A DNA stretch of 64,000 nt, taken from assembly GCA_015057705.1 (NCBI GenBank), contig SVDU01000016.1:849-64848 (forward strand), in the 5' to 3' direction. Source of the stretch: Paenibacillaceae bacterium (GTDB taxonomy: Bacteria; Bacillota; Clostridia; Lachnospirales; Lachnospiraceae). Positions within the stretch are counted from its first letter, which is position 1. Each line of letters begins with the position of its first letter. The notes under the pieces were generated by a model. It was given only the letters and a program-made list of their open reading frames with translations. It made no database searches and was not told the DNA's origin. Made by a program: the position numbers and the translations under genes. Positions 12,026 through 14,273 of this stretch are shown one piece after another.

Positions 12026-13954
12026 TCATAACTTAGGGAGGGTCTCATCCGCAGCTTTTCGGATCTCCAGACCTTCCTGATATCCCTTTTCCATCTTGTG
12101 TCTTGCCTTTCTGTTTTCCACGGTATCAAACAGAATGGAAAAATCATAATCTTCCGGATACAGCTGTTCTGCCGAAACCAAAAGTTTCAGCCGCTTATGA
12201 TTAATCCAGATTTTTTTATCCGGCATCTGAACCCGTACTACACCTTTATCATTGACCGTAGTGCAGACAATTCCTATTTTCTTGTCAGGCAGAATCATCA
12301 CACTGTCTCCAAGGGTGAATTTTGTCTGCATTGCGATCTGATTCTCTGTAACTTTCTTTATTTTTTCAATTCTGGGACCGCCCGGTCTTTTCTCTACTTC
12401 CCCGTATTTGCCGTACTCCGGTTCTGTCTCCGGTAACCCGTAGGCATACTGCTCTGCCCGTTTGATCATACGCTCCGGCATTCCCAGTCTGCCTGCAATA
12501 TAAAGCGCACAGCTTTCTCCTGCTTCTCCGATTTCCAGTCTGTACAAGGGTCTTAAGGATTCCCGGTCAAATGCCATGCGTGCATTGGTAATTCCCTCCG
12601 CTTCTTTTGCATAGGTTTTTACTTCCGGATAATGGGTGGTGGCTAAAAACAGACACCCGCATCTTCTTAATTCCTCCAGTATGGAGATGGCGATTCCCAT
12701 ACCTTCTGCAGGATCTGTTCCGGAGCCCAGCTCATCCAGTATGACAAGGCTTTCCCTGTCCGCCTTACTAAGAATATCCAGTACATTTACAATGTGGGAG
12801 GAAAATGTGGATAAGTTTTCTGTAATATTCTGTCCGTCTCCGATGTCACAGAGTACCTGGTTAAACAGGCTGATCTGACCTTCTTTGCATGGGATATGAA
12901 GTCCGCACTGAGCCATGAGGGAGAACAGACCTACGGTCTTAATGGAGACGGTTTTGCCACCTGTATTTGGTCCAGTTATAACAATTCCTCTTCCGTTTTT
13001 CCCCAGTTCAAAGTTTAAAGGTACTACCTGTTCCGGATTCATAAACGGGTGGCGCCCCTCAATAATCCGTATGATTTGCTCTGTACAAATCTCCGGCTCC
13101 ACTCCCTTCATATCCGCACTGAGCTTTCCCTTTGCAAAAAGGAAATCCAGTTTTTCCAAGACCTTCCTATTCTCTGTGAGGACCGGCAGCTGCTCTTCTA
13201 CCTGAGCGGTAAGGGTATAAAGAATTCTCCTGGTTTCATTCTCCTCTTCAATTCTCAAACTCTCCAGCTCTCCATTTAACGCAGCGATGGCAGAGGGTTC
13301 TATAAATAGTGTGGAACCGGTGGAGGACTGGTCGATAACACTGCCAGGTACTGCCGGCTTATACTCCTTTTTCACCGGGAGACATACTTTGCCGTTTCTG
13401 ATGGTGATATACGAATCTGAAAAGAACTTTTTATTGGTTCTTAACATGGATTCCGCCTTTGTTCTCAGCTTCTCTTCCATTCGTACGATCTCCTGGCGGA
13501 CGTTTCTTAAATACTTGCTGGCTGAGTCATCCACCCGTTTGTTTCTGATGCTTTCAAACAGTTCCTTTGCCAGACTCTCCAGGGGATTTAAGTTTTCTTC
13601 ATAATAGGCGAGGCTCAGCTCTAAATATTTGCATCGGTTTAAGAAATCCTTATACCGTTTTACGCCTGTGAGCATAGTTCCCACTGATTCCAGATCCTCT
13701 GGCATCAGAATGCCCTCCTGCATCACTGATTGAAAAATAGCCGTCATACCGTTCATGGCTACTGCGGGAGGCTGACCCATTCGGTCCAGGATCATTCTTG
13801 CCTGTGTGGTATCCCGGAGATTCTTCCTTACTTCTGCTTCTTTTAACTCAGGAGTTAAATTCCTGATCCGTTCTTTCGCACCTTCTGTAAGTGCCATTTC
13901 TTCCAGTTTCTCTATAATCCGGTTAAATTCTAATATTTGAAATGTGTGATTCAT
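12026..13954 (-). CDS. MutS2-like ATPase lacking the long coiled coil and Smr nuclease domain
   Basis: MutS2-type N-terminus (TFQILEFNRIIEKL), GSTLFIEP, Walker A GPNTGGKT, DELGSGTDP, ATTHY; ends with a short KOW-like segment (FTLGDSVMILPDKKIGIV); 642 aa. Confidence 0.85.
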   Translation of the reverse strand: MNHTFQILEFNRIIEKLEEMALTEGAKERIRNLTPELKEAEVRKNLRDTTQARMILDRMGQPPAVAMNGMTAIFQSVMQEGILMPEDLESVGTMLTGVKRYKDFLNRCKYLELSLAYYEENLNPLESLAKELFESIRNKRVDDSASKYLRNVRQEIVRMEEKLRTKAESMLRTNKKFFSDSYITIRNGKVCLPVKKEYKPAVPGSVIDQSSTGSTLFIEPSAIAALNGELESLRIEEENETRRILYTLTAQVEEQLPVLTENRKVLEKLDFLFAKGKLSADMKGVEPEICTEQIIRIIEGRHPFMNPEQVVPLNFELGKNGRGIVITGPNTGGKTVSIKTVGLFSLMAQCGLHIPCKEGQISLFNQVLCDIGDGQNITENLSTFSSHIVNVLDILSKADRESLVILDELGSGTDPAEGMGIAISILEELRRCGCLFLATTHYPEVKTYAKEAEGITNARMAFDRESLRPLYRLEIGEAGESCALYIAGRLGMPERMIKRAEQYAYGLPETEPEYGKYGEVEKRPGGPRIEKIKKVTENQIAMQTKFTLGDSVMILPDKKIGIVCTTVNDKGVVRVQMPDKKIWINHKRLKLLVSAEQLYPEDYDFSILFDTVENRKARHKMEKGYQEGLEIRKAADETLPKL

Positions 13955-14028
13955 GTTATTCTCCTGTCTTATCTTTTTTAAATGATAAAAGATTCATGGA
14001 GCAATCAGTCAGGCCTGTTTTGATACAC

Positions 14029-14070
14029 AAAAAAGACCTGCAAGACTACAAATCCCAGTCTTACAGGTCT
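14029..14070 (-). terminator. Leader (attenuator) terminator upstream of the mutS2-like gene
   Basis: Minus strand AGACCTGTAAGACT-GGGATTTGT-AGTCTTGCAGGTCT followed by a T-run, ~75 nt before the start codon. Confidence 0.85.
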
Positions 14071-14182
14071 AAAAATCCTGTCAGTCAGTTTTGTATCTTC
14101 ATGGGCTAAACAGGTACACAAAACAAAGGAATGCAAAGACTGCCTTCCTGTCCGGGTTTCCTGTTCACATTATGATTCTGAT

Positions 14183-14212
14183 TTACGCTCCATGATTTGA
14201 CACAATTAACAT
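14183..14212 (-). CDS. Putative leader peptide (uORF) MLIVSNHGA
   Basis: ATG TTA ATT GTG TCA AAT CAT GGA GCG TAA with AGGAAG RBS-like sequence upstream, located between a sigma-A promoter and a terminator. Confidence 0.6.
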   Translation of the reverse strand: MLIVSNHGA

Positions 14213-14243
14213 AAACACACTTCCTACTTTCTTTGATGCTTTT

Positions 14244-14273
14244 ACTATATCACAAATGCTGTTGTCCGGTCAA
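14244..14273 (-). promoter_or_regulatory. Sigma-A promoter of the mutS2-like leader
   Basis: TTGACC-18 bp-TATAGT with extended -10 TG. Confidence 0.7.

Follow-up and report, generated by a model that had tools for sequence, protein, structure and literature searches.

We describe a leader of 290 bases that lies 5' of a shortened MutS2-type ATPase gene in Lacrimispora (Lachnospiraceae), on contig SVDU01000016.1 of assembly GCA_015057705.1; the window is the whole 64,000-nucleotide stretch of that contig that was analysed. The leader is placed between a gene for a 348-residue double-NUDIX protein (15296-14250) and the gene for the 642-residue ATPase (13954-12026), and all of its features are on the minus strand. 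They include a promoter, a nine-codon upstream open reading frame (uORF), an intrinsic terminator and a strand complementary to the end of the uORF. The leader is probably a ribosome-dependent attenuator with two layers, combining stall-dependent attenuation of the vmlR/hflXr type with an erm-like unmasking of the main start site. We note that this reading is predicted from sequence comparison and RNA folding. Conservation was assessed first within the genus, using an alignment of 21 leaders whose gene products share 68-100% protein identity, and the parts of the leader are as follows.

14273-14244, minus strand: sigma-70-type promoter, with TTGACC at 14273-14268, an 18-nucleotide spacer and the extended -10 element TGaTATAGT (-10 hexamer 14249-14244)
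14225-14220, minus strand: Shine-Dalgarno (SD) sequence of the uORF, AGGAAG, 7 nucleotides before the start codon; the spacer, GUGUGUUU, is itself conserved
14212-14183, minus strand: uORF of nine codons plus stop (ATG TTA ATT GTG TCA AAT CAT GGA GCG TAA), coding to 14186, with TAA at 14185-14183; peptide MLIVSNHGA
14205-14199, minus strand: uORF strand A1, UUGUGUC, inside the uORF
14194-14187, minus strand: uORF strand A2, CAUGGAGC, inside the uORF
14166-14108, minus strand: inner domain, in which helix P2 encloses hairpin P3 (RNAalifold consensus)
14166-14160 with 14114-14108, minus strand: helix P2, GAACAGG with CCUGUUU, paired in 99% of cells across the 21 species
14148-14142 with 14134-14128, minus strand: hairpin P3, GGAAGGC with GCAUUCC, paired in 83% of cells across the 21 species
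14127-14119, minus strand: U-rich UUUGUUUUG, which contains TTNTTT, then GUGUACC; directly 3' of P3
14106-14091, minus strand: strand B, GCCCAUGAAGAUACAA, made up of GCCCAUG (14106-14100) and GAUACAA (14097-14091), the conserved partner of uORF strands A2 and A1
14070-14028, minus strand: intrinsic terminator with a 15-bp stem at 14070-14034 (AGACCUGUAAGACU..AGUCUUGCAGGUCU), a 7-nucleotide loop and a T-run at 14033-14029 (UUUUU G)
14034-14014, minus strand: clade-specific segment UUUUUUGUGUAUCAAAACAGG, 3' of the terminator, discussed below with the nested pairs
14008-13994, minus strand: strand C, CUGAUU GCUCCAUGA, complementary to the uORF end (A2 plus AAUCAG)
13966-13940, minus strand: main start site, with SD GGAG at 13964-13961 and ATG at 13954, followed by codons AAU CAC ACA U
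13954-12026, minus strand: the regulated gene, encoding a 642-residue MutS2 paralogue in which residues 2-504 make up the MutS2 N-terminal part and ATPase and residues ~545-595 a probable KOW/SH3-like segment

The promoter matches the consensus at 10 of 12 positions and carries the additional TG; its position predicts a transcription start at ~14237. Within the genus its hexamers were kept and its flanks varied. The terminator hairpin has a predicted energy of -21.4 kcal/mol and a conserved UUUG in its loop, and five of its pairs show compensatory changes across the genus. As bare consensus matches, neither promoter nor terminator exceeded shuffle expectation, and we credit both because they are conserved in the 21 same-genus leaders, the terminator with compensatory pairs. 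The 301-nucleotide leader as a whole is strongly structured, with a minimum free energy (MFE) of -93 kcal/mol compared with -67 +/- 5 for 100 dinucleotide shuffles, none of which was as stable (z = -5.0). A preliminary description, made from the window's letters, had named a promoter, an SD with the nine-codon uORF, a terminator and a main ribosome-binding site, and each is present at the locus on the minus strand. Its terminator stands with one amendment, as we count 15 bp in the stem where 14 had been given. The gene upstream of the leader encodes a 348-residue product with two NUDIX domains; its stop codon (14252-14250) overlaps the promoter, lying within the extended -10 element (TGa), and the gene has no terminator of its own before that of the leader.

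Conservation within Lacrimispora extended along the whole leader. Promoter hexamers, SD, uORF, both inner helices, strand B, terminator, GCUCCAUG and the main start site were all kept in the 21 leaders, many stretches being invariant. A covariance model of the part from SD to strand B (R1) found exactly one copy in 23 of 25 Lacrimispora genomes, with E-values of ~1e-23 to 1e-29. The start codon of the uORF is ATG among the closest species and also in the more distant L117 and L118; the other members of the genus use TTG, in the same frame and with the same stop. RNAalifold paired the UUGUGUC and CAUGGAGC of the uORF with the GAUACAA and GCCCAUG upstream of the terminator, on a strand ~90 nucleotides 3' of the uORF. 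These uORF:B helices (104-110/214-220 and 115-122/205-211) were paired in 98-99% of cells and were nearly invariant; the AACAGG:CCUGUU helix was likewise 98-99% paired and almost invariant. For the window's leader, the duplex of uORF and downstream strand reached -20.2 kcal/mol, with z = -2.8 against shuffled uORFs. Downstream of the terminator, the GCUCCAUG of strand C was essentially invariant in the 21 species and the A2:C helix was paired in 96% of cells. An extension of this helix appeared compensatory by eye (AAUCAG/CUGAUU to GGCAG/CUGCC to GCAAU/AUUGC), which a fixed-register count (73% of cells paired) did not confirm.

This pattern of pairing differs from the one proposed in the preliminary description, where three complementary pairs were nested around the terminator. 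All three are literally present in the window: UCAUGGAGC..AAUCAG (14195-14178) with CUGAUUGCUCCAUGA (14008-13994), CCUGUUU (14114-14108) with AAACAGG (14020-14014), and GAUACAAAA (14097-14089) with UUUU..GUGUAUC (14034-14022). As a conserved core, the nested arrangement did not hold up. Only the first pair, between the uORF end and GCUCCAUGA, is found genus-wide; the second and third are supplied by the clade-specific segment and depend on GUGUAUCAAAACAGG, which is present in the nine closest species only (L001-L009). The remaining 12 species have different sequence 3' of the terminator, or an insertion there that reaches ~90 nucleotides. Better-conserved partners of CCUGUUU and GAUACAA lie 5' of the terminator, at AACAGG and at the UUGUGUC within the uORF, and it is with these, rather than with the strands first proposed, that RNAalifold pairs them.

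The inner domain contains a further signal. By analogy with known leaders, hairpin P3 and the U-rich stretch that follows it may make RNA polymerase pause or act as a weak first terminator. A unit of hairpin, U-run and GUGU(A/G)(C/U)C occurs twice in the leader, once as the weak inner hairpin (14148-14113) and once as the strong terminator (14070-14022), and it also occurs in leaders of other families (L024, L025, L027, L029, L031, L033, L036, L037, L041, L046, L047, L051 and L145). This doubling and recurrence suggest two terminator-like modules in series.

The translational layer of the proposed attenuator is visible in the full-length MFE structure: the region around the uORF start is base-paired to that around the main start (UUUAUGUUA:UAACAUGAA and GUGUG:CACAC), and A2, at the end of the uORF, to GCUCCAUGA. 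The start-region helix (89-102/456-470) was paired in 86% of cells across the genus. The CUCC of strand C can alternatively pair with the main SD, and RNAalifold pairs CUCC with GGAG. With a ribosome modelled on the uORF start, the mean unpaired probability of the main SD through AUG rose from 0.25 to 0.67 in the window's sequence, and accessibility of the main translation initiation region rose in seven of eight genus members. A ribosome modelled at the uORF end gave no rise in main-start accessibility. Since it is the ribosome at the start of the uORF, not at its end, that frees the main SD and AUG in these models, we infer that the leader senses arrest at initiation or in early elongation. 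Codons 2-4 of the paralogue (13951-13946) are also conserved, with the Thr codon ACA invariant in the 21 species and the His codon either CAC or CAU only. An RNA constraint may reach into the coding region, as this conservation is in line with the predicted pairing between CACAC and the conserved GUGUG spacer that precedes the uORF.

The leader layout was not confined to Lacrimispora: it recurs before this gene in many Clostridia, both within Lachnospirales and in further orders of the phylum. Across lineages we considered the upstream regions of 40 + 12 fetched paralogue loci, plus 43 more, and the cross-lineage statistics were obtained with crude duplex and terminator heuristics of our own. 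In almost every lineage an SD-preceded short open reading frame (ORF) occurs 150-430 nucleotides 5' of the gene and is followed by one or two strong terminators. One uniform automatic criterion, an SD and a uORF of 3-13 codons followed by a terminator, picked out 86 of 121 loci of the paralogue in the phylum and, in the same genomes, 0 of 20 upstream regions of canonical mutS2 (Fisher p = 5e-10). Compared with shuffled uORFs, the duplex of uORF and downstream strand had a median z of -1.6 in 48 leaders of many lineages, with z below -2 in 35%. The preliminary description had pointed to the leaders of homologs as the place to look; far beyond the genus these leaders retain the uORF and terminator, along with pairing between the uORF and a strand 3' of it.

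These results bear on a non-regulatory explanation, in which the hairpin would simply be the terminator of the NUDIX gene, the paralogue would have its own promoter behind the hairpin and the nine-codon ORF would have arisen by chance. Such an explanation could draw on the lack of any terminator between the end of the NUDIX gene, at 14250, and the hairpin, and on SD-like short ORFs being common by chance in AT-rich leaders, where many spurious ones were listed. However, the stretch from the terminator to the main gene showed no promoter-like site, and promoter, uORF and terminator are kept as a unit in species with different upstream sequence and in families with other upstream genes. Together with the difference between paralogue loci and canonical controls, this leaves a non-regulatory leader disfavoured and, in our judgment, scarcely credible.

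Translation of the uORF is supported by several features of its sequence. An SD-like motif at the right spacing precedes the uORF in every lineage examined. In other families the start codon is GTG, TTG or ATG, always at the same position, and uORF length is fixed within lineages (9, 11 or 12 codons) despite nucleotide divergence. The predicted peptides of relatives include the following.

12 codons: MLSIVVMEKIAK, MLRVVVMENTAN and MLIVSVMEKMAN
11 codons: MLIVSVKVNIN, MLSVSVMVIFN, MSANMVSVIKT and MLSVVEEVLNY
9 codons: MSDSTVLVK
7 codons: MTMVFFN and MSGVVHN
5 codons: MLVLF
3 codons: MLA

Among 19 twelve-codon Lachnospiraceae uORFs, with the consensus ML[SIR][IV]VxMExxA[NK], entropy by codon position was 0.70/0.58/1.06, the third position being highest, and Glu8 and Ala11 were fixed while the wobble bases were free. 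SD spacing, switching among ATG, TTG and GTG at one position, fixed length within lineages and third-position variation together indicate, at the level of sequence, that the uORF is translated, and that in the 12-codon group at least the peptide is under selection.

Two further explanations turn on the peptide. In the first, the leader would be a homeostatic, drug-independent sensor: the uORF peptide would cause weak intrinsic arrest or be prone to collisions, ribosome dwell time on it would report how well the cell can resolve stalls, and the paralogue or canonical MutS2 would clear the uORF ribosome, closing an autoregulatory loop as in SecM-SecA or MifM-YidC2. The coding-type conservation of the 12-codon group, with E8 and A11 invariant and third positions free, would fit such a sensor, as would the persistence of the gene-leader pair across the phylum in ecologically very different organisms; feedback of a factor on its own leader has also been discussed for hflXr. 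The very short variants (MLA, MLIV and MLVLF) are hard to square with a nascent-chain arrest motif, however, and the peptide contains no known arrest motif. We consider this sensor unlikely, though it merits consideration. In the second, the uORF would be a branched-chain amino-acid attenuator sensing charged tRNA for Val, Ile and Leu, and slow ribosomes under starvation would allow read-through. Many relatives' peptides are indeed rich in Val, Ile or Leu (e.g., MSVSVVSVVRA, MLSVSVMVIFN and MLRVVVMENTAN). However, MLIVSNHGA has single Leu, Ile and Val codons and no long tandem runs of regulatory codons occur, pairing with a partner strand rich in A and C largely accounts for the U/G-rich codons, and the cargo, a MutS2-type ATPase, is not a biosynthetic or transport gene. 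This attenuator is disfavoured, and we hold it to be very improbable. Some relatives' peptides (..VFVI, ..SIVEV and MLVF..) may resemble Erm leader motifs; this likeness is not used as evidence here.

The strength of the RNA structure raises an explanation of another kind, a ligand- or protein-binding leader that would be riboswitch-like or would serve autoregulation by the paralogue (canonical MutS2 binds branched nucleic acids), with the short ORF incidental or secondary. The stability of the fold (z = -5.0), its multi-branch panhandle shape and the loops and junctions that are near-invariant in the genus (GUGUGU, the UUUG of the terminator loop and GUGUACC) are what would be expected of such a leader. 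However, RNA sequence and shape vary freely across families where SD, start codon, ORF and terminator persist, and start-codon switching and third-position variation point to translation. A search of the window with Rfam 15 returned only a chance match (Mu-gpT-DE, 22 bits against a gathering score of 49), and neither the leaders from 20 further lineages nor 4 related loci gave any match. This reading is likewise disfavoured, and we regard it as improbable.

Three side observations concern the leaders and surroundings of more distant relatives. In L119-L159 (Lachnospiraceae), a small hairpin with a covarying stem carries the stop codon of the uORF in its loop, in a conserved UAA AUA context (stems GCAA-AAUAAAUA-UUGC, CAAC-UAAAUA-GUUG and AGCUA-AUUAAA-UAGUU); this hairpin is absent in Lacrimispora. 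In L028 (640-770; 40% identity), a second ORF of 24 codons (MQDGWKKSIEEYGKKIINPNRRKS) lies 3' of the terminators and ends in TAATG over the main start codon, which suggests translational coupling to the main gene. Downstream of the paralogue in an Acetatifactor metagenome-assembled genome (L156, 2484-2642, minus strand), a sub-threshold match to Clostridiales-1 RNA scored 30.5 bits (gathering score 48).

Several results weigh against the two-layer, ribosome-dependent attenuator, some of them against its transcriptional layer. No convincing antiterminator was found in Lacrimispora: in equilibrium folding of the window's sequence, the terminator kept a probability of at least 0.95 whichever part of the uORF was masked, and it stayed intact with modelled ribosomes at all four positions. 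Folding truncated before the 3' arm of the terminator gave only weak and inconsistent partners for the 5' arm. The best conserved alternative from RNAduplex scans and constrained alifold, strand B with the loop and 3' arm of the terminator (-12 to -16.5 kcal/mol), is kinetically unfavourable and shows no compensatory changes. Complementarity between strand B and the 5' arm of the terminator was not above shuffles overall across lineages (median z = -0.35). The A:B and A2:C helices are nearly invariant within the genus, where the sequences are too similar, so that covariation is weak and cannot distinguish between or prove these helices. As for the uORF, a 1-nucleotide deletion shortens it to MLIV-stop in L010 and it encodes only MLA in L027, so peptide length and C-terminal sequence are not essential. 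Part of the peptide conservation is also RNA pairing. In the 11-codon group GGUAUCGGUG pairs with ACCGCAUACC with no third-position excess, and in the 11-codon MSxxxVSV group the Val-Ser-Val codons pair, with covariation, with sequence just 3' of the stop codon. Because these codons covary with the post-stop sequence and lack codon periodicity, RNA pairing also shapes the uORF 'peptides'.

Two apparent patterns were set aside along the way. Covariation between the P2/P3 junction and the terminator loop failed across species on inspection. Conservation of V6 and V8 as a peptide motif in the 11-codon group was rejected, as the covarying RNA helix explains most of it.

Outside the genus, competition among helices is easier to see. 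In these relatives the segment that pairs with the uORF is complementary to the 5' arm and loop of the terminator as well. In L023, ACAGAAUAC has two alternative partners, the uORF and the terminator arm GUAUUCUGU. In L038-L040 the choice for CUACCUUUACAG is between the uORF and the terminator's GUGUAAAGGUAG, and complementarity between strand B and the 5' arm of the terminator has z = -3.2 to -4.1. In the predicted pairings of these four loci, a textbook three-helix competition (1:2 / 2:3 / 3:4 logic) is clear and explicit. Because no convincing antiterminator was found in Lacrimispora, we infer a transcriptional switch there from the architecture of the leader and the homology of its layout. 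For the window's own leader, folding models leave the translational layer better supported than the transcriptional switch.

The regulated gene encodes a shortened relative of MutS2. Its product matches Pfam MutS_V (1.5e-40) and TIGR01069 (Endonuclease MutS2; 594 bits, cut-off 400) over model positions 2-511 of 790, and B. subtilis MutS2 chains in the PDB match residues 5-501 (E = 1.5e-110). No Smr domain was matched in the paralogue; the canonical copy in the same genome matches Smr at 2.4e-24. The paralogue thus lacks the whole Smr domain, and it also lacks the long coiled coil (~130 residues). Residues ~545-595 align with the MSSS (SH3-like) region of the genome's own 796-residue MutS2 (BLASTP E = 4e-5, 30% identity), and Pfam MSSS does not score on the paralogue. 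This agrees with the preliminary description, which had proposed a MutS2-like gene without Smr: the ATPase and, probably, a KOW/SH3-like segment are kept, and coiled coil and Smr are absent. The same genome carries MutS, a full-length MutS2 of 796 residues with coiled coil and Smr, and the shortened paralogue. The paralogue was found in 64 of 301 genomes of the order Lachnospirales (about a fifth) and, at a stricter threshold, in 16 of 301 genomes of the phylum.

What is known of B. subtilis MutS2 bears on the likely function of the paralogue. B. subtilis without mutS2 is hypersensitive to chloramphenicol, tetracycline and erythromycin; the domain that proves critical is the ATPase, and removing either Smr or KOW has modest effects (PMC10897456). 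The KOW/SH3-like (MSSS) domain of B. subtilis MutS2 binds uS10. Because the ATPase is critical and the effects of Smr or KOW loss are modest, a paralogue without Smr and with a putative KOW-like domain could, by analogy, still act on ribosomes. An alignment with canonical MutS2/RqcU of B. subtilis (Park et al. 2023, PMC10897456) covers ~500 residues of N-terminal lever/clamp and ABC ATPase, and a KOW/SH3-like segment is probably kept. In contrast to the canonical protein, the paralogue is a shortened second copy beside a full-length MutS2, and canonical mutS2 has no such leader (0 of 20).

The class of mechanism proposed here is well known, and the leader family itself is conserved, absent from Rfam and undescribed in the papers found. 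The preliminary description knew of no account of it, and we too found neither a matching Rfam family nor a paper on the leader or on regulation of the paralogue; a look for published transcriptomics of the locus also came back empty. The closest likeness is to the vmlR leader of B. subtilis (Takada et al. 2022, PMC9226507), which has a uORF in an anti-antiterminator, a pause hairpin with the NusG motif TTNTTT, a terminator and an SD-sequestering hairpin. Both leaders have their own promoter, a short uORF in an anti-antiterminator helix (here anti-antiterminator-like), an internal hairpin followed by the U-rich TTNTTT pause motif (P3 being comparable to SL-2 of vmlR), and a strong intrinsic terminator followed by an element that masks the main SD. 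In both, induction is modelled to require a ribosome held at the uORF start. Both cargoes are ATPases; the vmlR product acts on stalled ribosomes, and the paralogue is predicted to do so by analogy only. The two have no sequence or Rfam relationship, and the uORF has nine codons here (3-13 in relatives) and three in vmlR. The uORF helix here is long-range and encloses the pause-like hairpin, whereas in vmlR it is a local stem-loop before the pause hairpin. Masking of the SD here involves direct pairing of two start regions and a strand complementary to the uORF end. The cargo here is a MutS2 paralogue and in vmlR an ABCF protein, and the leader described here is known from its sequence.

A second likeness lies in the relation of the regulated factor to its housekeeping counterpart. 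In Listeria monocytogenes the leader rli80, which contains a uORF, governs hflXr, the gene for a paralogue of a ribosome-splitting factor (Duval et al. 2018, PMC6310831). In both systems a housekeeping ribosome-splitting factor (HflX there, MutS2 here) is accompanied by a second paralogue behind a uORF leader, with premature termination unless ribosomes stall, as we propose for the leader here. The two differ in that the rli80 peptide has 14 residues with the macrolide RLR motif and the peptides here are without RLR. The protein families are different, and induction and resistance have been demonstrated for hflXr; the corresponding steps here are predictions. A third likeness is to translational attenuation at ermC, in which a ribosome stalled on the leader ORF opens a structure that hides the downstream SD and start, by a four-segment relay with no terminator. 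In ermC-type leaders (discussed in PMC6310831), as in the leader here, a stalled leader ribosome frees the main start, here modelled as the rise from 0.25 to 0.67 unpaired. In contrast to ermC, the leader ORF region here pairs directly with the main start region, in a layer placed after a terminator.

One candidate for a second cargo of the leader was considered and rejected. In L076 (G021:C19), positions 1501-2432 carry a complete leader (promoter, uORF MLIVFNHGA and terminator) before a gene for a 217-residue protein with a RelA_SpoT domain, a small alarmone synthetase, and the MutS2 paralogue is absent from the G021 draft assembly. The candidate rested on the R1 match in G021. We reject a second regulon member because the junction lies within a multi-copy dispersed repeat and is probably a recombination or assembly joint, because in the genomes inspected, the window's and G019 among them, the synthetase gene lies elsewhere and lacks such a leader, and because R1 finds a single leader copy in every other genome. 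One G021 contig ends in the dispersed repeat.

The repeat itself is a side observation. It is an intergenic element of ~100 nucleotides with the palindrome GAATATGCTTGCATATTC and CTAAGAAAA..TTTTTCTTAG, of which each genome of one Lacrimispora subclade has 3-9 copies and the window's genome none. It accounts for the insertion seen after the terminator in the paralogue leaders of other species: copies lie between the terminator and strand C, just after the terminator, in L010 and L012-L017. Further copies are at 1370-1480 in L082 and at 1690-1800 in L076, 5' of the small alarmone synthetase gene.

Under the two-layer attenuator, the leader could operate as follows. During normal translation the uORF would be read and vacated fast, the uORF:B helix and the terminator would form, and most transcripts would stop near 14030. 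The uORF:B helix would be anti-antiterminator-like, closing the inner domain with its hairpin and TTNTTT stretch. The few read-through transcripts would adopt the panhandle, with the uORF half paired with strand C and the main start, and the gene would be poorly translated. A ribosome lingering on the first codons of the uORF (codons 1-4 as predicted by the models), owing perhaps to an inhibitor of initiation or early elongation or to another translation defect, would hold the 5' strand of those helices. Read-through of the terminator would then be favoured, and the main SD and AUG would be directly exposed. The product, a MutS2-type ATPase with a putative KOW-like ribosome-binding domain, would act on stalled ribosomes, as judged from B. 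subtilis MutS2, and the paralogue would be an inducible partner of the housekeeping MutS2, as HflXr is beside HflX. More tentatively, and with somewhat greater doubt than confidence, we suggest that the Smr-less paralogue may be an undescribed inducible ribosome-splitting or ribosome-protection factor ('MutS2r') that has spread through Clostridia, its leader peptides (ML[SI][IV]V.. / MS..V.SV..) serving as a dedicated stall sensor.

Inducible factors that free or protect ribosomes, such as ARE-ABCF proteins and HflXr, are an important and growing class of intrinsic antibiotic tolerance, and they have been found largely through their stall-sensing leaders. The leader described here gives Smr-less MutS2 paralogues, which have no assigned role, the same kind of regulatory fingerprint. 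It makes their role directly testable, by asking which inhibitors or stresses cause read-through and whether ribosomes are split without Smr. Should read-through prove not to depend on stalling, the leader would still be a conserved and unusually long-range RNA structure with a signal to explain. If they are induced by stalling and do split ribosomes without Smr, the paralogues would be a third family of inducible ribosome-rescue factors, and their leaders would offer new short peptides for context-specific stalling. If the paralogue is indeed a 'MutS2r', gut and soil Firmicutes would have a new pathway of intrinsic tolerance, defined by the drug class or translation defect that its leader peptides detect.

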